Part shown: positions 1-59,344 of the stretch, piece by piece
Layout of the letters: each line of letters opens with the position of its first letter
How positions within the stretch are numbered: position 1 is the stretch's first letter
Assembly: GCA_033485155.1 (NCBI GenBank)
Contig: JAWQJJ010000010.1
Coordinates: 6,479-70,478 of the forward strand
DNA from: Methanomassiliicoccus sp.
GTDB lineage: Archaea; Thermoplasmatota; Thermoplasmata; Methanomassiliicoccales; Methanomassiliicoccaceae
Reading direction: 5' to 3'
DNA: 64,000 nt
Notes under the pieces: generated by a model
Told to the model about the DNA's origin: nothing
The model's input: only the letters and a program-made list of their open reading frames with translations
Database searches by the model: none
Made by a program: the position numbers and the translations under genes

Positions 1-204
1 CAGGCGGAATCGGTGAGTATATCGTACCCCGCATCGTCGACCATCTAGATAGTGGGCGGGAACCTGGTTCAACTCGATATCAATGCTCAATGGGAACTCG
101 AGGCCGTCCGGTCCGCTGAGGTCCGGGGCGCTCCGAATGTACCCCGAGCAGGCCTTAAGCTCGTTCCTGAGCCTGGCGATGAGTATCTCACTCGGAAGGG
201 TCAC
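1..204 (-). CDS. candidate E2 (UBC-fold-like) conjugating enzyme; first 68 codons only, runs off the window start; not in supplied ORF track
   Basis: The minus-strand frame is open from GTG at 204-202 to base 1: VTLPSEILIARLRNELKACSGYIRSAPDLSGPDGLEFPLSIDIELNQVPAHYLDGRRCGVRYTHRFRL. The start overlaps the last 17 nt of the Ub-like gene. An amphipathic helix (ARLRNELK) followed by strand-like segments resembles the N-terminus of UBC folds. The catalytic-Cys region would lie outside the window. Confidence 0.35.
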   Translation of the reverse strand, partial: MTLPSEILIARLRNELKACSGYIRSAPDLSGPDGLEFPLSIDIELNQVPAHYLDGRRCGVRYTHRFRL

Positions 205-445
205 GATACCCGCCCTCGGGGTCGGGGATCAGCTCCAGTTCATCATCATCCTTGAGTCCGACCTCGAGCACCGTCTGCGAACCGCGCAACAATTTCTTCC
301 CCCGCCGGAGAACATAGGCTCCGGGGTCCTTGTGCCAAAACCCGGCGGCGCCCCGGACGATCTCTTCCATCGTGTTCTCGTTCTCCATCTCCATATCGAC
401 GGTCGATCCAGTCTCCGCGTTCCGTACCTTCACCCTGATGGGCAT
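188..445 (-). CDS. ubiquitin-like (beta-grasp) small modifier, apparent precursor with GG followed by a 6-residue tail
   Basis: 85 aa ending ...DELELIPDPEGG-YRDPSE. Size and alternating pattern fit a beta-grasp fold. It lies 70 nt downstream of the E1-like gene on the same strand. Confidence 0.6.
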   Translation of the reverse strand: MPIRVKVRNAETGSTVDMEMENENTMEEIVRGAAGFWHKDPGAYVLRRGKKLLRGSQTVLEVGLKDDDELELIPDPEGGYRDPSE

Positions 446-515
446 ATTATCTAGTGTTAATAATTAATGTACTAAGATAAAGTTGACGATTTCATGTAAC
501 AATTCTGATACTGTG

Positions 516-1307
516 TTATGTTCGGTCCTGGTGCAGAGGACAGGCAGGCTCGAAGGACATCTCCAGCTCGTCCCAGGTGTTCCTCAGGCCATTATAGTGG
601 ATGACGTTCCTGACGGCCGCGTCGCTCCTCCCGGACACGATCTTCAGGGCTTCCCTCACCTGTACCGCGGCGACGATCGAGGTGGTGGTGATCTCCGCGG
701 CCATGCTTGGCTCGTAGTAGGTGACGTCCGCACCGGTGCAGGAGTAACGCTTCTCGAGGATCCGGTAGTGGCTCTGGTTGAGGCCGCACTGCAGGCAAGG
801 AGTGGAGGGCGGAACGATTACCTGGACTCGGCCGGAGAAGCCGTCGGTGCCGCCGTCGATGTACGGGGTTCCATGATGGTAGGAGTGGGCGTTGGCGTGC
901 AGCCGCGCAGCGATATTGTCCAGGCAACCCAGGACGATATCGCTATCCTTCCACTCCCTCTCCTCTAGCTGTTCGATCCTTCCTGCCACCGCGCGCACCC
1001 GGACCTCGGGGTCAAGGTCCCTGGCCCGCTCGGCCACCGCCTCTACCTTCCACCGGTGCTCGGCGCTGTCGCGCTCGCGGAACAGGACGCAGCGGCTGAG
1101 ATTGGAGCGGACCACTCGGTCCATATCTACCACAGTAATCTCCCTGGCCCCTGCCAGCACGAGATCCTTGACCACCTCGTTGCCCAGGGCTCCGGCCCCC
1201 AGAACCAGGAACCGTGCCGCCTGCACCCGCCCCATGTCCAGCCAATCGATGCGGCGGGAGCGGTCCCATCGGTCCGCGTCCTCCTCCCCTGTCCGGATGA
1301 TCGTCAT
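516..1307 (-). CDS. E1-like adenylyltransferase (ThiF/MoeB/UbaA family)
   Basis: Rossmann GxGxxG (LVLGAGALGNEV), RSNLSR, GCLDNIAAR, a CxxC (PCLQCG) plus a distal C-P-L-H pair, and a conserved Cys in YSCTG. This is a typical ThiF/E1 adenylation domain, 263 aa. Confidence 0.85.
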   Translation of the reverse strand: MTIIRTGEEDADRWDRSRRIDWLDMGRVQAARFLVLGAGALGNEVVKDLVLAGAREITVVDMDRVVRSNLSRCVLFRERDSAEHRWKVEAVAERARDLDPEVRVRAVAGRIEQLEEREWKDSDIVLGCLDNIAARLHANAHSYHHGTPYIDGGTDGFSGRVQVIVPPSTPCLQCGLNQSHYRILEKRYSCTGADVTYYEPSMAAEITTTSIVAAVQVREALKIVSGRSDAAVRNVIHYNGLRNTWDELEMSFEPACPLHQDRT

Positions 1308-1447
1308 GTTCAGTGAGCCTACGGGCCGGGAGAATAATTATCTATTGTACAAAATATTTTAATATGATATCATGATTGATTGCCGACCAGTTGGTTTTAT
1401 AGGCTCATAGAATTTTTCCTGATGTACGTTGCGTATATCCCGATCAT

Positions 1448-4571: not shown

Positions 4572-6092
4572 ATGAATACCTCGGAGATCCTCGAGGGCCT
4601 ATCCGCCAACGAAGCCCGCCTGATGCTGGCACTGAACCGCCTGAACGGCCGCGCCACGCCGGAGGAGGTTTTCGAGGCCGGGGACTTCGGCCAGCTGGTC
4701 GAGGTCATGAACGCCGCATCCTGGCTACAGTCCAAGGGTGCGTTGCAGATCTCCGAGGTCGCCCGAAAGGTGTACTCCCTCCGGTCCACCGATGCGGTGG
4801 AGAAGGGCCTGCCGGAACGTCGGGCCCTAAAACTCCTGGACGAGAAGGGTGGGGAGATGGACATGAAGGATCTGTCCTCTGCCGTGGGCAAGGACGAGGT
4901 GTCTATCGCCCTTGGATGGCTGAGGAAGAAGAACCTTGCTTCCATCCGCAAAGAGGGCGGGAGCACCGTCATCACCCTTTCCGACCATGGCCGGGAGATA
5001 CTGGGCAGGAAGATGGAGGATGAGGCGACCCTCGAGGCATTGGCTAGGGAAGACATGTCCGAGGATAAGCTGGACAAGGCCACTATCGCCGCCCTCAAGT
5101 CCCGTCAGGACCTGGTGGTGGAGAAGCTTGTGGTCAGCCGCACGCTGGAACTTACCGACCTGGGCCGGGAGATGCTGGAGCTGGGAATTGAGGTTAAGGA
5201 AGAGGTCGCCCAGCTCACTCCCGAGCTCATCCAGACCGGCCGATGGAAAGAGGTCACCATCCGCAAGTACGACGTCCGCAGCTTCGCCCCGGCCATCTAT
5301 CCGGGAAAGAAGCACCCCCTGACCAGGATCGCCGACGAGGTCCGCAAGATCTTCGTGGACATGGGGTTCCAGGAGATCGACGAGGAGTATGTGCAGCCGG
5401 CGTTCTGGAACATGGACGCGCTGTTCACCCCTCAGGACCATCCGGCCCGAGAGCTCCAAGACACCTTCTACCTCAAGCGGCCAGCCCGTCTGGACCTGGA
5501 AGACGAGGACATCGTGGGCAAGGTGTGTTCCATGCACGAGTGCGGCGGGGACACCGGCTCCCTTGGCTGGAGGTATGACTGGTGCCGCGAGGAGTCGGAG
5601 CGCGCGCTGCTGCGAACGCACACCACCGTGAACTCGATCCGTCACCTGTGGAAGAACCCCGAACCGCCGGTGAAGGTGTTCTCTCTGAGCAAGGTGTTCC
5701 GCAAGGAAGCGATCGATGCCACCCATCTCCCGGAGTTCACCCAGATCGAAGGGATAATTATGGAGGAGGACGCCTCCTTCGACATGCTGTGCGGCATCAT
5801 CAGGGAGTTCTACGCCCGCATGGGGTTCAAGGACATCCGGTTCCGTCCCGGCTACTTCCCGTACACCGAGCCGTCGATGGAGATCGAGGTCCGGTTCAAG
5901 AACACCTGGATGGAGCTTGGGGGATCGGGCATCTTCCGGCCCGAGGTCACCGCACCCTTCGGCATCAAGTGCCCAGTGCTCGCTTTCGGCCTCGGCTTCG
6001 AGCGCCTGGCCATGCTGCGGTTCAACCTAAAGGATCTCAGGGACCTCTATATCAGCGACGTCGATATGCTCAGAACATCTCCGTTAATCTGA
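4572..6092 (+). CDS. pheS: phenylalanyl-tRNA synthetase alpha subunit, archaeal type
   Basis: Class II core (FRPGYFPYTEPSMEIEV, GFGLGFERLAML) after a long winged-helix N-terminal extension typical of archaeal PheS. Confidence 0.93.
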   Translation: MNTSEILEGLSANEARLMLALNRLNGRATPEEVFEAGDFGQLVEVMNAASWLQSKGALQISEVARKVYSLRSTDAVEKGLPERRALKLLDEKGGEMDMKDLSSAVGKDEVSIALGWLRKKNLASIRKEGGSTVITLSDHGREILGRKMEDEATLEALAREDMSEDKLDKATIAALKSRQDLVVEKLVVSRTLELTDLGREMLELGIEVKEEVAQLTPELIQTGRWKEVTIRKYDVRSFAPAIYPGKKHPLTRIADEVRKIFVDMGFQEIDEEYVQPAFWNMDALFTPQDHPARELQDTFYLKRPARLDLEDEDIVGKVCSMHECGGDTGSLGWRYDWCREESERALLRTHTTVNSIRHLWKNPEPPVKVFSLSKVFRKEAIDATHLPEFTQIEGIIMEEDASFDMLCGIIREFYARMGFKDIRFRPGYFPYTEPSMEIEVRFKNTWMELGGSGIFRPEVTAPFGIKCPVLAFGLGFERLAMLRFNLKDLRDLYISDVDMLRTSPLI

Positions 6093-7347
6093 GCTCGTTG
6101 GCCTTGAGGGCGAACTCCAGGGACTTCTCGCGGTTCCCGATGCTGTAGTACATCTCCGAGATCTTGTTGTAGAGCTCGGTCCGCTTGTTGTTCATGGCCC
6201 TTCGGCTCAGGGCGAACATGCGCAGCGCCTCGTCGTCCTCGCCGGTCTTCAGTGCTATCTGGCCCATTAGATAGTAGGTGTTGGATTCCTCCTCGGGATT
6301 ATCGAATCCTCGGCGGAGGAGTCTCTCCAGTATCTCCCTCGGCTCATGGTAGTCGCCGTTGCGGATCAGCGACTCGGCGATGTAGCACTCCAACTGGGTG
6401 TCGATGTGGTCATCGTACACACCGCGGGCCCGGATGAAAGCCCGGTAGGCGAGGTTGTAGTCCTTACGGTCCAGGTGCAGAAGCCCTTCGATCATGTACC
6501 CGTCGAACCTCTCCGACGGGATGCTGGACGCTTCCATGAACTTGGTTACGATGAGGCAATATTCATGCATCCCCACCCGGCGAGCGGTCTCCGCCTGCAC
6601 GTAATGCACCAAGCCGCTGTAGCCCCTCGTGACGTCCCGGATGTTGGACACCGCTTCCAGGAGATCCTCGTCCGGATGGAGCAGAAGCTCCTTGGCATTG
6701 TGGTACACCAGGATCTCGGCGTCGGCGTAGCGCTTGGCGCACACCAGGTGGTAAAGCACCTCCTTGAGATCGTCCCAGTGGAGCCAGTAGTCGACCGCGA
6801 AGCTGTGGTAGTCCTTCAGCTTCTCCGGGTCGGTAACGCTCACCACGTACTCCTTCAGCTCCTTGGGGAGATCGACCATCCCCCGCTCGTCGATCGGAAG
6901 CAAGGAGGTGGCGATGTCCGGGAGCACCTCCCGGCGGAAGGACTTGCGGAACACACAGGACATCGCTACCACTGGCTTGAACTTGTCATCCAGGGTGGCC
7001 CATAGCTCCGGGCCCTTGCACTTGCGGATGTCCTGCAGGGGGACGAGGTCAATGGCGTTCTCCGCGGCGAAGTCCTTGATGACCTGGGCCTTCTTCTCTC
7101 CCTGTGCGGTTAGGAAGTAAGCCTTCCGCTTGGTCCTCCCCTTCTTGATGTGGGAGAGCCGCTCGGCGACATCCCTGGAGTCTTTAAGTTTCTTGAGTTC
7201 CAGGGCAGCGTGGGCCCTCGATATCCGCAGCGCGGCAGCAATCCCGTCCTGAGTGATGTCGATAGGGACGTCAAAGGAATCCTGATACTTGGCGTACTGT
7301 GACAGGTGGAAGATTATTCGCTCTCCGACCGTCAAAGAAGCTGCCAT
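6070..7347 (-). CDS. winged-helix DNA-binding domain + TPR-repeat protein (paralogue A)
   Basis: N-terminus LTVGERIIFHL...ISRAHAALELKKLKD...KGRTKRKAYFLT looks like a MarR/ArsR-type wHTH. The C-terminal half has TPR-like repeats (YYLMGQIALKTGEDDEALRMF, AEMYYSIGNREKSLEFALKA). ATG 7347 chosen (MAASLTVGER). Confidence 0.7.
   Translation of the reverse strand: MAASLTVGERIIFHLSQYAKYQDSFDVPIDITQDGIAAALRISRAHAALELKKLKDSRDVAERLSHIKKGRTKRKAYFLTAQGEKKAQVIKDFAAENAIDLVPLQDIRKCKGPELWATLDDKFKPVVAMSCVFRKSFRREVLPDIATSLLPIDERGMVDLPKELKEYVVSVTDPEKLKDYHSFAVDYWLHWDDLKEVLYHLVCAKRYADAEILVYHNAKELLLHPDEDLLEAVSNIRDVTRGYSGLVHYVQAETARRVGMHEYCLIVTKFMEASSIPSERFDGYMIEGLLHLDRKDYNLAYRAFIRARGVYDDHIDTQLECYIAESLIRNGDYHEPREILERLLRRGFDNPEEESNTYYLMGQIALKTGEDDEALRMFALSRRAMNNKRTELYNKISEMYYSIGNREKSLEFALKANELRLTEMF
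6914..6954 (-). repeat. 41-nt patch identical to 8256-8296 (inside paralogue A)
   Basis: atgtccgggagcacctcccggcggaaggacttgcggaacac occurs verbatim in both paralogues. A second 45-nt patch (7208-7252 vs 8550-8594) differs at 1 position. Confidence 0.85.
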
Positions 7348-7408
7348 AGAATGTCCCTTGCTGGATAAAGCTGAACGCTTAAAGAATATTTGTAATTCAC
7401 TCAATTTC

Positions 7409-8689
7409 TTACATGGTGACCCTCGGCACTTGCACTCTCTTAGCCCGCACGGCATACTCCTCGGCCTTCTCCTTCATGCCGATCATGCCATAGGCATCGG
7501 AAAGGCGAAGGTACAGCTCCCCGTTCTCCTTGTCTCGGGCCGCTCCCCGGCTCTTACTGTAGAAGCGCACCGCGCCGGCCCCGTCCCCGATGCGCAGGGA
7601 GATCGTCCCCAGCTGATAGAAGATGCGCTCCAGGTGGTCACCGTCCGCCGCACCCAGGGAGATCAGGCGGTCCAGGGTCAAGCGGGCCTCGCCATACCGG
7701 CCGGCCTGAATGAGGGTCTCGGCGCTCTCGCACCCGACCCTGACGTCCTCGCCCTGGACCTCCCTCCCAGCTTGCCGGAGAAGACCGAGCGAGCCCTCGT
7801 GGTCGCCCCTGGTCCTGAGGACCAGCGCTTCAGTCATCAGGCCGTTGAACCTGTCCTGGGGGGAGGGCGCGTCACGCAGCTCACCCGCCTTCCTGGACGC
7901 CAGGTCGAGGTCCCCGCTCCTCCGGGCCACCTCTGCTTGGGCATATAGCACCCGTCCGCGGTAACGATCGGTGGAGGGGACTATGGCCATGAGCATCTGG
8001 ACAAGGTCACGGTCGGCCGGTCCCAGAGGGGCGATGCCTCTGGACGCCACCATGACCTCCGCTTCCCAGCTCCGGCCGGCTTTCAGCAGATGGTATAGGC
8101 GCTCTCGATAGTCGCCCACGGCCAACCAATAGTCCGCGGCCTGGGAGTGATACTGCCGAAGGAGATCAGGGTCTACCTGGGCGGGGACATAGGAGCGCAG
8201 CTCGGGAGGCATGTCGACCATTCCGTCGACGTCCACCGGTAAAAGGGAGATGGAGATGTCCGGGAGCACCTCCCGGCGGAAGGACTTGCGGAACACGCAG
8301 GCCTGCGCCAGCACGGTTCGCTGGAAGTCATCAAGCGCTGACCACAGCTCCGGCCCCTTGCACTTCTTGAGGTCCAGGAATGGCTGGATGTCGATGCCCT
8401 CATCCTCCGCGAACTGGCGGACGAGTCTCGCGCGTTCCTCCCCCGGGGCGGTGAGGAAGTATACTTTTCGTTTAGTCTTCCCGCGCTTGATGTGGACGAG
8501 CCTCTCCGTTACCTCGCCCCCGTCCTTAAGCTTCTTCAGCTCGATCGCCGCGTGGGCCCTCGAGATCCGCAGCGCGGCAGCAATCCCGTCCTGACTGACA
8601 TCCAGGGGCGCGTCGTAACTGTCAATGTATTTGGAGTACTGGACCAGATGAAGGACAATCCTCTCTCCGACGGTAAGGGAGCCAGGCAT
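7409..8689 (-). CDS. winged-helix DNA-binding domain + TPR-repeat protein (paralogue B)
   Basis: Same architecture as 6070-7347 (MPGSLTVGERIVLHL...ISRAHAAIELKKLKD...RGKTKRKVYFLT; C-terminal TPR-like repeats). ATG 8689 chosen. Confidence 0.7.
   Translation of the reverse strand: MPGSLTVGERIVLHLVQYSKYIDSYDAPLDVSQDGIAAALRISRAHAAIELKKLKDGGEVTERLVHIKRGKTKRKVYFLTAPGEERARLVRQFAEDEGIDIQPFLDLKKCKGPELWSALDDFQRTVLAQACVFRKSFRREVLPDISISLLPVDVDGMVDMPPELRSYVPAQVDPDLLRQYHSQAADYWLAVGDYRERLYHLLKAGRSWEAEVMVASRGIAPLGPADRDLVQMLMAIVPSTDRYRGRVLYAQAEVARRSGDLDLASRKAGELRDAPSPQDRFNGLMTEALVLRTRGDHEGSLGLLRQAGREVQGEDVRVGCESAETLIQAGRYGEARLTLDRLISLGAADGDHLERIFYQLGTISLRIGDGAGAVRFYSKSRGAARDKENGELYLRLSDAYGMIGMKEKAEEYAVRAKRVQVPRVTM
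8256..8296 (-). repeat. 41-nt patch identical to 6914-6954 (inside paralogue B)
   Basis: See 6914-6954. Confidence 0.85.
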
Positions 8690-8755: not shown

Positions 8756-9142
8756 TCAATTTTGACGTTTCCTAACAGGGGCGATAGGGGTCACCTCATC
8801 CACGTCAATCACCATGACTGCAGAGGGGGGAGGTAAAGATATCTTCAGTGCGGGCGCCGCCTCACAAAGGTAGGTAAGGGCGGACCCGGTCTCATCCGGC
8901 GATCCCCGCCCCTTTATCTGATAGCCGTTCCCCTGAGGGTCCAGGACCACCACCGCCACGTTTGGTCGGGCCTGGAGATTCCTGGTCGTGCGCCCCTCGA
9001 CCAGATCTGCGAAAACCAGACGCTCGTCGTCCAGTACCGTCAGGCTGCCCTTGGGGGCGACGTTGGGGACGCCCTCCGGGGAAACGGTAGCGAGCAGAGC
9101 GGGTCTGTACCGTCGGACGAAGTCCATAACCTCCACGCTCAT
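8756..9142 (-). CDS. pyridoxamine 5'-phosphate oxidase-family (FMN-binding split-barrel) protein
   Basis: LLATVSPEGVPNVAPKGSLTVLDDERLVFADL...RNLQARPNVAVVV is a typical PNPOx-like pattern. An internal ATG was chosen (MSVEVMDF); the upstream part of the ORF overlaps the neighbouring gene end. Confidence 0.65.
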   Translation of the reverse strand: MSVEVMDFVRRYRPALLATVSPEGVPNVAPKGSLTVLDDERLVFADLVEGRTTRNLQARPNVAVVVLDPQGNGYQIKGRGSPDETGSALTYLCEAAPALKISLPPPSAVMVIDVDEVTPIAPVRKRQN

Positions 9143-9225
9143 CTTGACCAGAGGATCACCGCAGGGAGGATGGCAGAAGGGAGGATAAAAAATGGGCGGG
9201 AAGAGGTTTGTCTCGGTCCGAATGG

Positions 9226-10626
9226 TCACCGGTTCGGGGCCATTCCCAGGTTGAGAGTGGAACTCAACTGGCTGTGAATCTCGCTTAGCACCGAGCCGAA
9301 CTCCTCGCTGGCCTTGGAGGTCTCGGAGATCTTGGAAGCAGCGATGGCCGAGGCACAGCGGTCTGCCGCCACCTCCAGCAACCTCATCTCCCGATCGTTC
9401 TGGGCGTGGGGTGACGACCATACTACTTGGAGCAACCCGATGACCGTTGAGCTGTGCCTGATAGGTACTCCCAGCAGGCTGCGGGCGCCGGTGGCTTTCA
9501 GCGGTTCGGAGACCTCTGGATCGCTCTGGGCATCCTCCACAAAGACGCCCTGGTTATCGCCGATCACCTTACCCGGGAAGCCGCTCCCGGCGTCCTCGGA
9601 GTATCCGCTCGGGTACTTGTCCGCACTGCCCTGGATGGAGCGGGCGACGAGTCGGTCCCCCTCCCGCACCAGGACGCTCCCGGAATCCGCCCGGACGATA
9701 GTGGTCAAGTTCCGCAGCAGTGAGTCCATCGCCTGCTCCGGCTGGACCACGTTGACCGGCATCGCTGCGACCTGCCGGAGGGCGGTAAGCTCCTCGCTGA
9801 CTCCTGCCAGCTGCTTGAGGAGCTGCTCCCGGTCCTCCTGGAACTTGGCCCGGTCGGAGATATCCAATATGCGGACCATGCGGGCCGGGGCTCCCTTGTA
9901 CTGTACATCTTGGGCCCTCATTTCGACGGCTACGGTGGAACCATCCTTGCGGTTGAGCACTCCCTCGTGAGTGGAGGAAGAGTCGGCGATCTTGGTCGGC
10001 ACCAGTCCCCGTGACCCGGCCAGCATGAGCTGGCCCTCCTCTAGGCCCATTAGCTCGGAAGTCGAGTAGTCGGCGATCTCCGCGAAGCGGCTGTTGGCCA
10101 CCACGAGCTTGCCGTTCTGGAATATGGCCGCTCCCTCGAATACCGATTCAAGACCGCTGCCACTCTCCTGAGCCTCCTGAAGCTCCTTCTCCAGGCGGTC
10201 GGCTCGTTGCTTCTCCGTGTGATCCTTGATGAGCGCGTAGTAGTACAGCACCTTGCCGTCCTTGTCCGTCGTCTGCCCGAGGACGACCTGCACCAGAATG
10301 CGGGAACCATCCTTGCCCATCTGCTCCTTCTCATAGGTCTGGGGGTGCCCGGTTTTCCTCAGCTCCTCCATGGCTTGGGCTTCGCGCTCGTGCCATTCCG
10401 GAGGGGTGAGGTACATCACCCACTGCATTCCCCGCAGTTCCTCCTCGGAATACCCAGTCAGCTTGGCGAAGGCTTCGTTGAAGGCCATCGTTCGCCCGTC
10501 CGGATATCCAGCCACAAAGGGCATCGGCGACTTGTCGATGGCATCGGCCAAAAGGTGAACATAATCGCGGAGGGTCCTGAGCTCTTTCTGTGCGCTGGTC
10601 TCTGACTTATCGTTCGAGCCTGGCAT
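9226..10626 (-). CDS. PAS-PAS-GAF sensor protein without recognisable output domain
   Basis: Two PAS-like segments (FNEAFAKLTGYSEEELRG...; ANSRFAEIADYSTSELMG...) are followed by a GAF-like segment (IVRADSGSVLVREGDRLVARS...LLGVPIRHSSTVIGLLQV). Confidence 0.75.
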   Translation of the reverse strand: MPGSNDKSETSAQKELRTLRDYVHLLADAIDKSPMPFVAGYPDGRTMAFNEAFAKLTGYSEEELRGMQWVMYLTPPEWHEREAQAMEELRKTGHPQTYEKEQMGKDGSRILVQVVLGQTTDKDGKVLYYYALIKDHTEKQRADRLEKELQEAQESGSGLESVFEGAAIFQNGKLVVANSRFAEIADYSTSELMGLEEGQLMLAGSRGLVPTKIADSSSTHEGVLNRKDGSTVAVEMRAQDVQYKGAPARMVRILDISDRAKFQEDREQLLKQLAGVSEELTALRQVAAMPVNVVQPEQAMDSLLRNLTTIVRADSGSVLVREGDRLVARSIQGSADKYPSGYSEDAGSGFPGKVIGDNQGVFVEDAQSDPEVSEPLKATGARSLLGVPIRHSSTVIGLLQVVWSSPHAQNDREMRLLEVAADRCASAIAASKISETSKASEEFGSVLSEIHSQLSSTLNLGMAPNR

Positions 10627-52438: not shown

Positions 52439-52511
52439 GGGCAGGTAGATCAGCTGGAAGATCGCTACCTTGGCATGGTAGAGGCCGGGGGTTCAAATCC
52501 CCCCCTGTCCA
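52439..52511 (+). tRNA. tRNA-Ala (anticodon GGC)
   Basis: Acceptor GGGCAGG/CCUGUCC with the G3:U70 Ala identity pair, D arm GAUC/GAUC, anticodon arm CUACC-UUGGCAU-GGUAG, T arm GGGGG-UUCAAAU-CCCCC. No encoded CCA. Confidence 0.9.
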
Positions 52512-52662
52512 CTTCTAACAATATCCAGTTTATTCGTATTATGAATCACCGTTGGTTTGAGCGTTGGGTCCGTCTATTGTTTTGTGCCAAATAGCTCGTA
52601 CTTAGCTTTGTATAAAAAAGCCGTCAGCCATTCATATAGACAGATACCTGCCCATGCTCACA

Positions 52663-52884
52663 CTAGCCCAGTAAAAACGCGATAGCTACAATTAGCAGAG
52701 TGATGGCCATGCCGATTCCTATCCAGCGACGAATAGCTCTAGATTCTTTCGCTGAGGGACTGAAAAGATTGTCGTCTGATTTTTGTTGCGAAGCAGTTTG
52801 CTTTTCTATTAGACTTTCATTTAAACTCCGACCATGCATATCCCCATGTATTGGAGGAACCATAGGTGGCGACAAAGAGGACAT
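52663..52884 (-). CDS. hypothetical tail-anchored small protein
   Basis: 73-aa ORF with one C-terminal TM helix (WIGIGMAITLLIVAIAFLLG), in the AT-rich block. Confidence 0.3.
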   Translation of the reverse strand: MSSLSPPMVPPIHGDMHGRSLNESLIEKQTASQQKSDDNLFSPSAKESRAIRRWIGIGMAITLLIVAIAFLLG

Positions 52885-53269
52885 TAATTGAAAATATGCA
52901 TTGAGTCACTTAATGGTATTCCTTTAAATTTGTTAAAGAAAGTGAAGGAGTGCGGGCCATCTCGACGCCCTCTGCCAAGAAATTCGCCCACATCTTTCCA
53001 TTGTAAGAAATCCTGATACTCTGGCCAGTCGATGTTTTGGAGAGTTCTCTTCCTGTCCATGCCCCCATTATATCTTGTCTGTTCACAATCTGAGTCAATA
53101 ACGGTGTTTTGATACCTTCATCTGACTATTCTATGTGTCCTTCAGCCTATGCCTGCACCTCATTTCCATACGATAGTATAGTCCCTGAGTTGGGGGCGAA
53201 ACGGTCCCTGCCTCAGTTGCGCGAACAGGGTCCGGGGTAGACCCATCTCGCCGTTCATGATGGTCGAGG

Positions 53270-53746
53270 TCAGCGTTTGACGGAAGCCTCCCTTTGGAGT
53301 TTATCATGCAGGTAACCAATTGCCATTCCAAGAGCAAGAATCCTCAGAACGTTGAACAATGCACCGATAAGGAAGTAACGCGAGGCATCACCCATCGTGA
53401 GAAAACGTGCAGGACCTTCGAGCAAGATCGTGACGATGATTAGGGCGATCAAGCTGAGCATCACCGATTTCAATATTGGATTCTTCGTTGGAATGTCGTC
53501 AAAAAATCGAAGCAAGAGATAGCTGACAGAGAACCCGATGATCAGGCCACCGATCAAAGACTCAACAATCATGGGGAGATAAGAGATCGAAAGAGCAGCC
53601 CCATATTCGGCGGCAATGGAGGTCCGGGAAATTGCGAAGTTCGTTAACCAGAATGCCGCTGCCCCCACCATGGTCATTTTGTACAACTTTTTGTAGACAT
53701 CCTGTGGCGTTTCCCGTATCCTTGGATCAGCAGCTTGGGATTCCAT
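53270..53746 (-). CDS. hypothetical 4-TM membrane protein
   Basis: 158 aa with four hydrophobic helices. No family recognised. Confidence 0.45.
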   Translation of the reverse strand: MESQAADPRIRETPQDVYKKLYKMTMVGAAAFWLTNFAISRTSIAAEYGAALSISYLPMIVESLIGGLIIGFSVSYLLLRFFDDIPTKNPILKSVMLSLIALIIVTILLEGPARFLTMGDASRYFLIGALFNVLRILALGMAIGYLHDKLQREASVKR

Positions 53747-53752
53747 TGGTGA

Positions 53753-54241
53753 TCAGCCAAAATCGACGATGAGCAAGATCCCCAACAGCCTGGGAAGGAT
53801 GCTCGATCGTTAGACCAGATAGCCGAGAGGAAGCAACCAGGCGCCATAGAATATCTGGGCGATCATGAACCCGTTGGTGTACATATTGATATATAGGAGG
53901 GCCTGGGCCTGCAGCTGATCGACCGGGAACACTGCCAGGTAATCGGCGCCTCCCAACAGTTGCAGGGCTGCGAACAGGTTTAGCATGTTGATTCACTCGA
54001 CCACGATCCCGCCCAGGTTCAACAACAGGAAAAGTAAAGCAAGGTTCCTGTGGATCGGCCTTAATAGCACGAACAGGGCCCAAGCCACCAGGACGAAGAA
54101 CTAGGCCGAAAAGAGTTCGGTCACCAAACCTATGCGAAGCAGAAGTCCATCAGTCGCGACACTATGGGCCGTGGTGGCAGCATCGCCGAACACAATTACG
54201 TAAGAGCGAAGATAATCTGCCAGGACGGTGGTCAAGACCAT
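53753..54241 (-). pseudogene. decayed DUF4386-like membrane protein gene
   Basis: One minus-strand frame reads MVLTTVLADYLRSYVIVFGDAATTAHSVATDGLLLRIGLVTELFSA*FFVLVAWALFVLLRPIHRNLALLFLLLNLGGIVVE*INMLNLFAALQLLGGADYLAVFPVDQLQAQALLYINMYTNGFMIAQIFYGAWLLPLGYLV*RSSILPRLLGILLIVDFG*. It is DUF4386-like throughout but interrupted by TAG, TGA and TAA and lacks the usual C-terminus. Confidence 0.6.
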
Positions 54242-56035: not shown

Positions 56036-59000
56036 CTATTCTCTGAACACGTTCGGCGGTACGATGATCTCGAATCGGGCACCCTGGCCCAGCTCACCGA
56101 CCTCCTGAATTTGGGCCCCGGTCAAGCCAAAAATCTCTCGAGCGAGGAACAGTCCCAGCCCGGTGTTCTTGCCATAGCCGAGCTGGAATACTCTCTCCTT
56201 CTCCTCCGCCGCAATGCCGACGCCGTCGTCTTGGCATATGATCTTCAGGTCCGTGCCATCTCTTTCAACCCACAGGCGGATCTCGGTCACCTCTCCCCCG
56301 TGTCGTATCGCGTTGTCCAGGAGGCTGTAGAAAACTTTGACGATCAGGGGATCGGCCAGAACCTGTTCTGAGGGCGGGATGTCGTTGACCAGACGTACCG
56401 CGCCCAAATTTATGCCACCAGCTGCTTTCTGTACCACTTCCCTTATGGTCTGCCACTCCGGATCCGTGTTCCCCAGATTCTCATATGTTTTGGTGAAGGC
56501 GATGATGTCACCCATTCTTTCAGCGTTGGCGGAAATATTCTTCACGCGCGAGTTGCCCGCCAACTCGGGGTGCTCTCTCTCCAAGAGGGCCAGGTTCCCA
56601 TTGATGATGGTCAACAGATTGTTCAGATCATGGCGGGTGATGCTCGACAGCAGGTTCAGCTTCCGGTTGGCCAGCTTCAGCGCGTTGGTCCTCCGTTTTT
56701 TGTCCGTTATATCCCTGACCACGGACGTGGTGATGACGCTGTCTCCGGTCATCAGAGTATGGGCGTTGATCTCCACTGGGACCATGAGGCCATCCTTTCG
56801 GCGGAGCTCGGTCTCGAACCTAGCTCGGCCATGGATCCTCAGGCTCTCCAGGATCTGGTCCAGTGGAGGATCGTGGTACGACGCGGCAATGTCCAGGGGC
56901 CCCATCCCCAAAACCTCGTCTCGCGAGTAACCAAGCATGCGGCAGGCAGAATCATTGATATCTATAAACCGGCCAGGCTCCCCCCGCTCATTGGCTTCAT
57001 GAATGTGGATGCCATCATCGGCATTGGTGAAGACCTCACGGTACTTCGCTTCGCTCTCCCTGAGCCTATCCTCTGCTTCCTTCCGCTCGGTGACGTCCCT
57101 GCCGATGGCGATCAACACCCTTCTGCCCTTCTGATCGTAGGCGTTCGAGGTTATCTCTACTGGGAACACGGTCCCGTCCCTGCGACGGTGATATCTTACG
57201 GGGATCACTTCCTGAGCCGCCGTTACCACCGAAGGGGCCTTTTCCGGCTCCGCCGACAGGTCGGTATTCTGCATCCTAACGAGTTCATCGTGGCTGAAGC
57301 CATAGGTTCTGACGGCGGCCGGGTTCACGTCCAGTATGCCCCCGGTCTCCGCGTCCATCTGAAATATGGGGTCCGGTATGGCCTCGAAGAGGGCGCGATA
57401 TCTGTCATCGCTTTCCTTCAGGTCTCTCTCCAACCGCAACCGTTCGTTCAGGTTCAGTATCGAACCCGTGATGAAGCCCAGATCCCGACCCTTATCGTCC
57501 TCGACCCGGGACAGGCACATCTCTCCCATTATGCTGCTGCCATCTCTCCGAGCGAACTCCGCCTGGGAATACCAGTGACCGGTTCGAGCGATCGATTCAT
57601 AGGCTTCCGTCCTCTTCTCATCGGACAGGATCAGGAAGTCCCTGACCTTGTGCCCAACCAACTCTTCCTTTGAGCTCACCTTTACCAGGTCCATGAATGT
57701 CTGGTTGGCATAGGCCAATATCGCTTCATCGTCTATGATGAAGTTGGCGTTCAGCGAGGAGTCCATCGCGTGCTTGAAGAGAAGGCTCGATTCCTTCACC
57801 TTCTTGTGGGCGTTGATGACCTCGGCATAGAGTATGATGCCCCCTACGACATCTTCTGCATCATACCAAGGGCGGCATTCCCATCTCGTCCAGGTGATGG
57901 AGCCGTCGCTCCTTTGATACGGATCGTCCTCCGCGCTCAGCACCTCGCCGGCCAAGGCACGCTGGTGGACGTCCCTGAACCTTTGCGGAAGATCCGGGAA
58001 GACCTCATAGTGGTGCCGTCCGATAACATCCTCGCTCGATACGTTATACTCCTCGAAGAAGCGTTTGCTGGCATAGAGGTATCTCAAGTCCCTATCCAGA
58101 ACGGCTATGCCGCTACGGCTATGCTCAACGATGTTCTTCATCAGATCATTGGACCATAGCAACCGTAGCTCCGCCTTCTTGCGATCGGTTATGTCCTGGT
58201 CCGAGCCGATCACGATAAGAGGCTTTCCCTCCTCATCGAACCTGGCTATCTCTCCGAATACATTCAGCACGCGGACCGATCCGGCTGTCGTGACTATCCG
58301 GAAGTCGAAATTAATGGGCGAATTGCCTAACATTATTTTGTCGATCTCCCGTTTGACCAGCTCGCGATCGTCAGGGTGAATATATCTGTAAAAAGCATCC
58401 ATGGTCGGGGTGAATCGCTGCCTGTCCTCGCCGAAGATACGGTACATTTCATCGGACCATGACAGCTCCCCGGTCCTGAAATTCCACTCCCAGCTCCCGA
58501 TGTGCGCGATCCGCTGGGCATCTGCCAGGTTCTTCTCGCTCCTCTTGAGCCGCTCAACCGATTCTTTTTTCTCGGTGATGTCTCGCACCGCCACGACCGC
58601 CCCTACTATCGCTCCCACCTCGTCGCGTATTGGGCCAAAGCTGTAACTTCCCCACCAGCTCTCCCCAGTGTCCTTCCTTTGCAGCCTATACTCGACGCCG
58701 GTGGCGGTCTCCCCCCGCAACGCCCGAGGGACCGACCTCTGGTCTGCAACGACAGGAGTGCCGTCCGGTAAGAAGACTTCATTGCGATCCAGGCACTGTG
58801 ACAACCTCTTGAACGCCTCTTTCTTGTCCTTCAATCGATGAAACCGGACGAAAGCTTCATTGACCTCGACGATCCCGCCCTGGGGATCTGCTATGAGGAC
58901 CGCATCGGTCATGCTGTGGAGGGCGGCGTTGAGCTTGGCATTGGATGTCAAAGCGCTCTCTTCGGCCCTGCGCCTCCTCACCGCCTCTTTGATCTTGTAC

Positions 59001-59344
59001 TCAAGCTCAACGAACTGAGCGGTCGGCTCCCCTCCCTTCTGCAGGTAGAAGTCAGCCCCTTCGTTCAAGGCCTCGATAACGACCTGTTCGCGCCCTTTGC
59101 CAGTGAACAGGATGAACGGCATCTTGTTATTGCGGCGGCGCAGCAACTTAAGGAAGTCGATGCCGTTCATCACCGGCATCTGATAATCTGAGATAACAGC
59201 ATCGTATGATGTCGAGGCCATCATCATCTCGGCCCCCTCGGCCGAGTTTATAGTGTCGACCGATAGGTCACCCGACATCTCTAGAAACGCCTTTCCGATC
59301 TCGAGCAACGCCTCTTCATCATCAACATATAGAACCCGAATCAT
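56036..59344 (-). CDS. hybrid sensor: N-terminal receiver + multiple PAS domains + histidine kinase
   Basis: Receiver (VLYVDDEEALL...AVISDYQMPVMNG...FILFTGKG), at least five PAS-like segments, H-box SSITRHDLNNLL, and ATPase N/G boxes (LLDNAIRHG, DDGVGI, GYGKNTGLGLFL). Confidence 0.85.
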   Translation of the reverse strand: MIRVLYVDDEEALLEIGKAFLEMSGDLSVDTINSAEGAEMMMASTSYDAVISDYQMPVMNGIDFLKLLRRRNNKMPFILFTGKGREQVVIEALNEGADFYLQKGGEPTAQFVELEYKIKEAVRRRRAEESALTSNAKLNAALHSMTDAVLIADPQGGIVEVNEAFVRFHRLKDKKEAFKRLSQCLDRNEVFLPDGTPVVADQRSVPRALRGETATGVEYRLQRKDTGESWWGSYSFGPIRDEVGAIVGAVVAVRDITEKKESVERLKRSEKNLADAQRIAHIGSWEWNFRTGELSWSDEMYRIFGEDRQRFTPTMDAFYRYIHPDDRELVKREIDKIMLGNSPINFDFRIVTTAGSVRVLNVFGEIARFDEEGKPLIVIGSDQDITDRKKAELRLLWSNDLMKNIVEHSRSGIAVLDRDLRYLYASKRFFEEYNVSSEDVIGRHHYEVFPDLPQRFRDVHQRALAGEVLSAEDDPYQRSDGSITWTRWECRPWYDAEDVVGGIILYAEVINAHKKVKESSLLFKHAMDSSLNANFIIDDEAILAYANQTFMDLVKVSSKEELVGHKVRDFLILSDEKRTEAYESIARTGHWYSQAEFARRDGSSIMGEMCLSRVEDDKGRDLGFITGSILNLNERLRLERDLKESDDRYRALFEAIPDPIFQMDAETGGILDVNPAAVRTYGFSHDELVRMQNTDLSAEPEKAPSVVTAAQEVIPVRYHRRRDGTVFPVEITSNAYDQKGRRVLIAIGRDVTERKEAEDRLRESEAKYREVFTNADDGIHIHEANERGEPGRFIDINDSACRMLGYSRDEVLGMGPLDIAASYHDPPLDQILESLRIHGRARFETELRRKDGLMVPVEINAHTLMTGDSVITTSVVRDITDKKRRTNALKLANRKLNLLSSITRHDLNNLLTIINGNLALLEREHPELAGNSRVKNISANAERMGDIIAFTKTYENLGNTDPEWQTIREVVQKAAGGINLGAVRLVNDIPPSEQVLADPLIVKVFYSLLDNAIRHGGEVTEIRLWVERDGTDLKIICQDDGVGIAAEEKERVFQLGYGKNTGLGLFLAREIFGLTGAQIQEVGELGQGARFEIIVPPNVFRE

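Follow-up and report, generated by a model that had tools for sequence, protein, structure and literature searches.

The left edge of a 64,000-nucleotide stretch of Methanomassiliicoccus sp. DNA (contig JAWQJJ010000010.1; the whole stretch is called the window here) carries three co-directional genes on the minus strand: an E1-like activating enzyme (516-1307), a small ubiquitin-like (Ubl) protein (188-445), and a third open reading frame (ORF; 1-204) that runs off the edge. This gene string, a candidate Ubl-conjugation cassette, is the subject of the present report. The ORF list and a reading of the sequence place the three genes where the first-pass annotation, made from the sequence alone, had put them. 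The E1 and Ubl proteins are each 100% identical to GenBank proteins (P0221 and P0122, respectively) that lie on the same 98,042-nt contig as a third protein, P0002. The features at the core of the locus are the following.

1-204, minus strand: first 68 codons of a 169-aa ubiquitin-conjugating enzyme (E2) of the UBC type; GTG start at 204-202; H89-P-N and Cys102 lie beyond base 1

188-445, minus strand: Ubl precursor, 85 aa, beta-grasp, ending ...ELIPDPEGG plus a 6-residue tail (from fold, Gly-Gly and family alignment)

191-208, minus strand: codons of the tail YRDPSE, a propeptide that the JAB protease described below is predicted to cut off

209-214, minus strand: codons of Gly78-Gly79, predicted mature C-terminus and conjugation site (GG in all 99 homologues)

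516-1307, minus strand: E1-like Ubl-activating enzyme, 263 aa, one ThiF adenylation domain

738-740, minus strand: codon of E1 Cys190 (R-x-S-C-T-G), candidate thioester cysteine in a short loop after the CxxC motif; invariant

1182-1199, minus strand: codons of the E1 nucleotide-binding loop G37-A-G-A-L-G42, invariant in 38 E1 orthologues

In the frame of the third ORF (+1 relative to the Ubl gene), a stop at 231-229 is followed by the GTG at 204-202 as the earliest start codon, and no further stop occurs in frame to base 1, as the first-pass annotation had read it. The GTG sits 17 nt inside the Ubl gene, and the translation begins VTLPSEILIARLRNELKAC... In GC-rich DNA such an ORF could have arisen by chance or be what is left of a decayed gene, leaving a locus of only E1 and Ubl: high-GC DNA yields many long spurious ORFs, and the 68-aa fragment alone has no match in Pfam, NCBIfam or PADLOC. 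That explanation is effectively refuted by P0002 (GenBank MDW5564066.1), the annotated 169-aa E2 of the same contig, whose residues 1-68 agree with the fragment at 67 of 68; the one mismatch is the start residue, V from a literal reading of the GTG as against M in P0002. Amino acid conservation also extends over more than 70 homologues, which align to the fragment at 29-74% identity, and the family keeps its catalytic motifs without variation. Because the first 68 residues, the Ubl and the E1 all match, the window is a piece of the P0002 contig and P0002 is the full-length third ORF. A further 101 codons remain to the left of base 1, where the HPN-Cys stretch FHPNIMMPEDGGHMC is expected.

The full-length protein has the marks of an E2. 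Its GenBank title is 'MAG: ubiquitin-conjugating enzyme E2 [Methanomassiliicoccus sp.]' (MAG, metagenome-assembled genome), and PF00179 is assigned to it and to all 120 homologues listed. The orthologous ORF of a closely related locus (L001), also 169 aa long, contains FHPNIMMPEDGGHMCTKLL and scores 51.7 bits with the UQ_con model (gathering cut-off 27). Residues H89, P90, N91, C102, W109, P129 and N130 are invariant in 54 E2 homologues. A phmmer search of PDB sequences puts eukaryotic E2s on top (Rad6/Ubc2, UBE2T, Ubc13; E ~3e-10), and the HPN and Cys columns align to those of Rad6, with a 3-residue insertion between HPN and Cys.

The AlphaFold model of the E2 (predicted local distance difference test, pLDDT, 84.4; predicted TM-score, pTM, 0.76) contains a helix at residues 5-18, a beta-meander and C-terminal helices, so that the N-terminal helix followed by strands proposed from the fragment recurs in the model of the full protein. 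Foldseek matches this model to UBE2N, Ubc4, UBE2L3, UBE2D2 and Rad6 (probability 1.0, TM 0.50-0.68); there are 360 PDB structure matches at E<=0.001, and all 50 listed are eukaryotic E2s. The suggestion that the third ORF encodes an E2-like protein with a catalytic cysteine is thus borne out by the UBC fold, the HPN motif and Cys102 of P0002, together with the UQ_con match of the L001 orthologue. The family comprises more than 130 clusters at 90% identity, every named source being a member of the Methanomassiliicoccales or Thermoplasmatota, and a hidden Markov model scan of 1.84 billion representatives with the E2 profile returned 30 representatives below 1e-30.

Distant relatives of the E2 show several other domain arrangements. 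E2-JAB fusions are represented by P0343, which has a C-terminal zinc ribbon, and P0360, whose E2 part lacks the Cys; Ubl-E2 fusions (P0351, P0403) are joined right after ...PDPxGG. Proteins P0372, P0377, P0379 and P0383 (~225 aa) combine an N-terminal beta-grasp-like domain with an HPN E2-like domain that mostly lacks the catalytic Cys. One distant E2 relative comes from a Theionarchaea MAG.

The genes beyond base 1 were approached through related loci, namely L001 and L004-L008. L001 belongs to an uncultured Methanomassiliicoccus MAG found by a scan that used one genome per species; its E1 is 79% identical to that of the window, and the upstream synteny is the same. L004 is the M. luminyensis locus and L005 that of Ca. 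Methanoplasma termitum. Two other scan matches, L002 and L003, were set aside as ThiF relatives that are not orthologous loci. The order E1 (ThiF), 80-85-aa ORF, UQ_con, JAB is found in L001, L004, L005, L006 and L008, and in the same five loci genes for a SIS-domain protein and an AP_endonuc_2 protein lie on the other strand downstream of the cassette. Beyond this pair, L005 and L006 have ribosomal-protein genes; the tryptophanyl-tRNA synthetase (TrpRS) gene lies upstream in the Methanomassiliicoccus loci. In L007 (Ca. Thermoplasmatota MAG, JBFMHJ010000157.1, 4117-5775) the Ubl-E2-JAB triad is present with no E1 adjacent, and the contig ends soon after.

The JAB or Rpn11-type isopeptidase that was proposed as a check of the cassette is therefore there: a JAB gene stands directly after the E2 gene in all related loci examined. 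The protein was characterized through its L001 orthologue, the gene itself lying off the window. In L001 the GTG that opens the JAB gene overlaps the E2 stop (GTGA), and the protein has ~220 aa. It reads EVMG...HSHPSFHCFMSSTD, with an intact JAMM site (H-x-H-x7-S-x2-D), and scores 54.5 bits against the Pfam JAB cut-off of 22.5 (1.2e-14). Among PDB sequences it comes closest to yeast and human Rpn11 (3.7e-15), with Caldiarchaeum Rpn11 (6fjv, 2.9e-11) and CSN5 behind them. The gene overlaps (17 nt between Ubl and E2; GTGA between E2 and JAB) suggest that the genes are translationally coupled.

The Ubl family counts 99 clusters, and the E1 family makes up an uncounted share of 1041 ThiF-family matches; wherever the source organisms in the E2, Ubl and E1 searches are named, they are Methanomassiliicoccales or Thermoplasmatota archaea. 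The fixed genomic position across two families of the order indicates that the cassette is probably a vertically inherited core chromosomal gene set of the Methanomassiliicoccales. Locus L006 has an extra 374-aa ORF (6317-7441), with no convincing Pfam match, between JAB and SIS; it could be an accessory factor (e.g. a substrate adaptor) or unrelated. The L007 triad lies directly downstream of genes for an Lhr-type helicase and a metallophosphoesterase, and its E1 could lie elsewhere.

The Ubl protein (P0122, titled 'hypothetical protein SA339_12675') ends in ...LELIPDPEGGYRDPSE. The sequence ...PDP(E/Q/T)GG occurs in 99 of 99 homologues, with G78 and G79 invariant. What follows the GG varies: no residue in 46 homologues, one in 24, two in 4, five in 1, six in 21 (including the window protein) and 9-11 in the remaining 3. 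The tail sequences are unrelated to one another. An invariant GG with disposable tails is the signature of a conjugatable modifier that is made as a precursor.

Sequence profiles place the Ubl less firmly. The Pfam ubiquitin model reaches E=0.0026 on the window protein, which is sub-threshold; over 57 homologues, ubiquitin is matched by 46, YukD by 47 and ThiS by 3 (best ThiS 0.0024), mostly sub-threshold. Since these profiles mostly fall short, and ubiquitin does about as well as YukD, the placement is based on the fold and the conservation of the GG. A profile of the family finds only ubiquitin chains among PDB sequences, and its positions 11-79 align to positions 8-76 of ubiquitin; Gly78-Gly79 therefore fall on ubiquitin Gly75-Gly76. 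The AlphaFold model (pLDDT 88.8) is a beta-grasp fold. Foldseek places SUMO, ISG15, ubiquitin, Hub1 and Caldiarchaeum ubiquitin (6fno_D, TMq 0.82) at the top, with TM values of 0.75-0.89; all 50 matches listed have probability 1.0, and neither ThiS nor MoaD is among these top 50. Together, the modelled fold and the weak sequence signal favour grouping the Ubl with ubiquitin and SUMO, not with ThiS and MoaD.

The 6-residue tail coincides with the 17-nt overlap of the Ubl and E2 genes (window 188-204; L004 6001-6017; L008 5001-5017). In L005 (5999-6001), where the Ubl has a one-residue tail, and in L006 (4995-5001), where it has none, the two genes do not overlap and E2 starts just past the Ubl stop. 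Because the 6-residue tail is found exactly where the Ubl frame reads 17 nt into E2, the propeptide may be a by-product of the gene overlap that JAB must remove. Cleavage of the tail by the JAB of the operon is suggested by analogy with Caldiarchaeum pro-ubiquitin and Rpn11 (PMC5654768, PMC6043591). On conjugates of the window orthologue, trypsin would leave a 14-residue remnant, DDDELELIPDPEGG.

The E1 (P0221, titled 'ThiF family adenylyltransferase [Methanomassiliicoccus sp.]') matches the Pfam ThiF model at E=4.8e-51 over residues 25-257; its orthologues have 253-295 aa. No ubiquitin-fold domain (UFD), second adenylation domain or large cysteine domain is present in the 263 residues. Invariant in 38 orthologues are R13, R16, G37xGxxG42, D61, D63, S68-N-L-x-R72, K87 and D130-N131, and likewise C171xxC174 (the two Cys codons at 797-795 and 788-786), C190-T191 and C256xxH259. 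We take R13/R16, the GxGxxG motif and the acidic and basic residues to be the arginine finger, the nucleotide loop and the ligands of ATP and Mg; C171xxC174 and C256xxH259 presumably form a structural zinc site. Cys190 is assumed to occupy the position of ThiF Cys184 and MoeB Cys187, and it resembles the 'CT' catalytic motif of eukaryotic E1s. By this analogy, Cys190 would be the catalytic residue.

An ordinary sulfur-carrier or SAMP pair would look much like the E1 and Ubl genes taken by themselves. Under that explanation the two proteins would serve molybdopterin, thiamine or tRNA thiolation, or E2-independent conjugation as in Haloferax, and the downstream gene would be unlinked. SAMP/UbaA of Haloferax volcanii, ThiS-ThiF and MoaD-MoeB share with the present locus a small beta-grasp GG protein and a single-domain E1 of ~260 aa with a CxxC zinc site and a loop Cys, as well as a JAMM protease that matures the tag and takes it off again. 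In size and domain make-up the E1 resembles ThiF, MoeB and UbaA, whose models are its best NCBIfam matches, and 3 of 57 Ubl homologues weakly touch ThiS. However, the E1 stays below all curated NCBIfam equivalog cut-offs, and by a wide margin: it reaches 126.7 bits against 275 for ThiF (TIGR02356), 104.4 against 266 for MoeB (NF004281) and 86.5 against 450 for UbaA (NF047750). Its best solved relatives in a single-sequence search are the active adenylation domains of UBA7, UBA1, UBA3 and SAE2 (2.8e-24 to ~7e-18), with Escherichia coli ThiF (4e-17) and MoeB (2e-16) ranking behind the eukaryotic E1s.

The gene arrangement also speaks against a sulfur-carrier pair. Those systems have no E2, whereas in this locus translation of a UBC E2 appears to be coupled to that of the Ubl gene, and the Ubl is nearer to ubiquitin and SUMO. 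The E2 and JAB genes overlap their upstream genes, Ubl-E2-JAB occurs in all seven related loci examined, and E1 is adjacent in six of them, L007 being the exception. No MoaE, ThiG, rhodanese or NcsA-type gene was found in the neighbourhoods of L004, L005, L006, L008 or the window, so that the counter-case the first-pass annotation had named (a small protein of the ThiS/MoaD kind among sulfur-transfer partners) did not materialize beyond the weak ThiS matches. A sulfur-carrier pair is thus very unlikely. The cassette of E1, Ubl and E2 proposed as the alternative to it is favoured by the E2 fold with its HPN-Cys site, by the JAB gene next to it and by the Ubl fold.

The interpretation that emerges, with a probability of about 0.85, is that E1, pro-Ubl, E2 and JAB form a self-contained, eukaryotic-type Ubl-conjugation operon, the first three genes of which lie at the left edge of the window. 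Its working can be outlined as follows. The JAB metalloprotease would trim the 6-residue tail and expose Gly79. Gly79 would then be adenylated with ATP by the 263-aa E1, which probably forms homodimers as MoeB and ThiF do and would next take the Ubl as a thioester on Cys190. The Ubl would be passed by transthiolation to Cys102 of the UBC-fold E2, which would aminolyse it onto target lysines, either without a dedicated ubiquitin ligase (E3), as in Bil, or with an E3 encoded elsewhere. JAB would later remove the tag again. The analysis covered gene content and order, folds, catalytic residues, the GG with its tails, and synteny; the chemical steps, the oligomeric state, the targets and the role are what we infer from them. 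The JAB steps are modelled on Caldiarchaeum Rpn11, which acts on pro-ubiquitin and on conjugates (PMC5654768, PMC6043591). Precedents for E3-independent transfer and for UFD-independent docking of E1 and E2 exist in BilABCD (PMC10557695). The conserved core genomic context makes housekeeping protein turnover or regulation, rather than defence, the best guess for the role.

Several points weigh against this interpretation. Just 68 of the E2's 169 codons fall inside the window, the HPN-Cys site and the JAB gene lie outside it, and the adjacency of JAB on the window's own contig is deduced from relatives (56-80% E1 identity) and from the GenBank prefix. The sequence likeness of the Ubl to ubiquitin is weak and below the Pfam threshold, with YukD matched about as often. 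Since the E1 has neither the UFD nor the cysteine domain with which canonical E1s recruit and charge E2, its handing over of the Ubl to the E2 cannot be taken for granted. A search of the cassette and its flanks for an E3 turned up none. Finally, a dual or purely sulfur-carrier role of the E1-Ubl pair is compatible with the sequence.

A different function for a conjugation cassette would be antiviral, with a system of the Bil, Bub or CBASS kind tagging virus proteins during infection. The set of components (Ubl, E2, JAB-type deubiquitinase and E1, with no E3) equals that of BilABCD (Chambers et al., PMC10557695), and an E1 without a ubiquitin-fold domain is also shared with BilABCD Types I and II (PMC10557695). 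PADLOC matches the E1 weakly to Cap2 'E1-E2' (up to 57.5 bits) and BilD (27 bits), and the JAB, likewise weakly, to generic CBASS-type JAB models (best 2.1e-06). Yet the E1 matches cover only the generic adenylation core, and PADLOC gives no defence-family match for the Ubl or the E2 (only a chance-level 0.047 to a CARF/HEPN model); the version used, PADLOC 2.0 of 2023, may lack Type II Bil and Bub models.

The organization of the locus points away from defence as well. The gene order is E1-Ubl-E2-deubiquitinase, as against Ubl-E2-deubiquitinase-E1 in Bil. The Bil E1 has an inactive and an active adenylation domain with a CYS insertion, as against the single domain of the 263-aa protein here, which lacks BilD's inactive adenylation and CYS domains. 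The E2 is a canonical HPN UBC protein that passes UQ_con, and no PADLOC Bil-family match was obtained for E2, Ubl or JAB. The fixed place beside the SIS and AP-endonuclease genes in at least two families marks a vertical core set in a conserved, housekeeping context, not a patchy defence island, and no CD-NTase or CapH/CapP-like regulators were found nearby. An antiviral role is therefore judged unlikely, if somewhat less so than a sulfur-carrier pair. Of the cassette types between which the first-pass annotation had left the choice, the Bil-like one stands for composition (E1, Ubl, E2 and deubiquitinase without E3), while the sequences are nearest to the eukaryotic and Caldiarchaeum type.

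The operons of Caldiarchaeum subterraneum (Aigarchaeota) and Asgard archaea likewise cluster a tailed ubiquitin precursor, an E1-like protein, a UBC E2 and an Rpn11-like JAMM protease (Nunoura 2011, PMC3082918; Hennell James 2017, PMC5654768; Fuchs 2018, PMC6043591). The likeness to Caldiarchaeum extends to eukaryotic-type sequences and folds, its ubiquitin superposing on the Ubl model (6fno_D) and its Rpn11 being matched by the JAB (6fjv). There are also differences. The small RING-finger E3 (srfp) of the Caldiarchaeum and Asgard systems was not found here in the cassette or its flanks. A regular-expression scan of all ORFs in the 64-kb window, L001 and L004 returned no ORF with a RING pattern, and no RING or zf Pfam family occurs among the called neighbours in L004-L008 (precomputed Pfam lists); the small RING-like protein that the first-pass annotation proposed to look for next to the cassette was thus not found in these stretches. 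In contrast to the Cluster I and II systems, the E1 here, at 263 aa, has no C-terminal ubiquitin-like domain; absence of the UFD marks 'Cluster III' and bacterial-like E1s (supplement of PMC5654768). Unlike in the Caldiarchaeum and Asgard operons, JAB lies inside the operon and co-directional with it, and the Ubl tail has 0-6 residues rather than 9. The host, too, belongs to a methanogenic order of Thermoplasmatota, not to the TACK or Asgard archaea.

Compared with the eukaryotic ubiquitin, E1, E2 and Rpn11 proteins, the best solved sequence matches of the E1, E2 and JAB are UBA7/UBA1/UBA3, Rad6/UBE2T/Ubc13 and Rpn11, respectively; the E2 motifs HPN-x-Cys-x-W and PNP and the terminal GG of the Ubl are also shared. 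On the other hand, the E1 here does without a second adenylation domain or subunit, the FCCH and SCCH cysteine domains and the ubiquitin-fold domain; in the E2, HPN and Cys stand 3 residues further apart; the Ubl ends in PDPEGG instead of LRLRGG; and a repertoire of E3s is lacking.

By sequence and fold, the closest kin are eukaryotic ubiquitin, E1, UBC and Rpn11 and the Caldiarchaeum and Asgard operons; by composition, the closest is Bil; and by E1 architecture, UbaA, MoeB and ThiF. The cassette is assigned to the archaeal operon kind because it has a UBC E2 and a JAMM protease, the E1 falls short of ThiF, MoeB and UbaA, and the PADLOC Bil families are not matched; srfp and the UFD are the missing parts. 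It is classed as an operon-encoded archaeal ubiquitin-like conjugation system in reduced form, from a previously undiscussed lineage.

A bolder version of this reading can be put forward, at slightly less than even odds: an E3-less, constitutive and vertically inherited ubiquitylation system in the Methanomassiliicoccales in which the 263-aa single-domain E1 still charges the HPN-Cys UBC E2. If true, this would be the most stripped-down E1-to-E2 relay known, and for the first time a ubiquitin system of the eukaryotic type would be available in an archaeon that can be cultivated and belongs to neither TACK nor Asgard; it would also inform the question of whether the E1-E2 relay is older than the TACK/Asgard lineage or was spread by transfer. 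To our knowledge, the only reconstitution of eukaryote-like archaeal ubiquitylation used synthetic genes of an uncultured aigarchaeon. The debate about its origin centres on TACK, Asgard and, recently, bacterial defence operons.

The individual genes have not gone entirely unnoticed. In pipeline annotations the E1 goes by 'ThiF family adenylyltransferase', and the E2 by either 'ubiquitin-conjugating enzyme E2' or 'ubiquitin-protein ligase'; sources that name the Ubl call it a 'hypothetical protein'. The JAB of M. luminyensis (WP_019177758) was presented as one of two archaeal Rpn11 orthologues, with no mention of its neighbours (Fort et al. 2015, PMC4453063); it adjoins the E2 WP_019177757. 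Euryarchaeota enter another survey only through a marine group II single-cell genome (Grau-Bove et al. 2015). Methanomassiliicoccus is not named in PMC5654768 or its supplement, where four unclassified archaeal clusters are 'not shown'. In the searchable literature (subscription-only articles excluded), a ubiquitin system of the Methanomassiliicoccales or M. luminyensis comes up nowhere beyond the one sentence of Fort et al. on the JAB. The claim that such a system is undescribed for this kind of euryarchaeon thus holds for the system as a whole within that literature; it does not hold for the E2, named by the NCBI and JGI pipelines, or for the JAB.

Since the cassette looks like a core trait of the order and one member is in pure culture, three uses may be offered. 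M. luminyensis, a cultured human-gut methanogen, is a tractable host for in vivo study of tagging, its targets and a link to the proteasome. The minimal natural E1 tests how much of a eukaryotic E1 is needed to load an E2. The order also supplies an extra lineage for rooting the trees of E1, E2, ubiquitin and Rpn11. The significance is tempered by the earlier naming of the E2 by pipelines and the notice taken of the JAB in 2015.

Two noncoding regions of the locus may be regulatory.

1308-1447, minus strand: AT-rich upstream intergenic region of 140 nt, probable operon promoter, shared divergently with a response-regulator gene (judged from the sequence)

446-515, minus strand: AT-rich spacer between E1 and Ubl (from an alignment of the window, L001 and L008 spacers)

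The upstream region separates E1 from a divergent response-regulator receiver gene at 1448-1903 on the plus strand. TATA-like runs, TTAAAATATTT and ATAATTATT, lie 20-50 nt upstream of the E1 ATG and agree with its being probably the operon promoter. In the spacer, a block of ~39 nt directly after the E1 stop (window 477-515, minus strand) reads ACAGTATCAGAAT.GTTACATG.A..C.T.A.CTTTAT. It is kept in the three closest Methanomassiliicoccus loci (window; L001 10786-10825; L008 about 4690-4730), not in M. luminyensis or L006, and its CTTTAT is TATA-like and lies ~30 nt before the Ubl ATG. This block may be an internal promoter for Ubl-E2-JAB or a regulatory RNA element; its conservation could also reflect mere short divergence time.

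Past the 140-nt region, the other-strand neighbours encode the response-regulator receiver, TrpRS, an ApbA-like reductase, TrmO and the alpha subunit of phenylalanyl-tRNA synthetase (PheRS-alpha), in keeping with the earlier description of the surroundings as housekeeping. The receiver at 1448-1903 is an orphan domain; its gene adjoins the cassette in L001 and L008 too, and the operon may be under two-component control. Large sensors encoded in the window are a 466-aa PAS-GAF protein (9226-10626, minus strand) and a 1102-aa receiver/multi-PAS/HATPase hybrid histidine kinase (56036-59344, minus strand).

Some further observations concern the wider surroundings of the related loci and of the window. 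In M. luminyensis, an IS4-type DDE transposase (L004 2231-3211) and an IS605 OrfB/TnpB (9078-10223) bracket the cassette region. A large helicase-like protein is encoded a few genes downstream of the cassette, with 1628 aa in L001 (14296-19182) and 1574 aa in L004 (from 10373); the L004 protein contains DUF4011, AAA_11/AAA_12 and MTES_1575 domains. The non-orthologous locus L002 (uncultured Methanomassiliicoccales archaeon, CASEZY010000004.1, 8652-11080) encodes a different pair, of bacterial type: a 203-aa Prok-JAB protein overlaps a 414-aa ThiF-family E1 with 35% identity to that of the window. Ahead of the pair lies a 192-aa ORF that matches nothing in Pfam and contains a 'HPHVWDGGMPCW' motif reminiscent of prokaryotic E2-like proteins. 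These genes suggest that the order has another Ubl-type system besides, unrelated to the cassette and possibly mobile. Far to the right in the window, two minus-strand ORFs (53270-53746 and 53727-54083) near a tRNA-Ala gene (52439-52512) have third-position GC contents of 0.56 and 0.33, against ~0.8 elsewhere, and no Pfam match; positions 52439-54083 could represent a short segment, foreign or integrated, at the tRNA gene.

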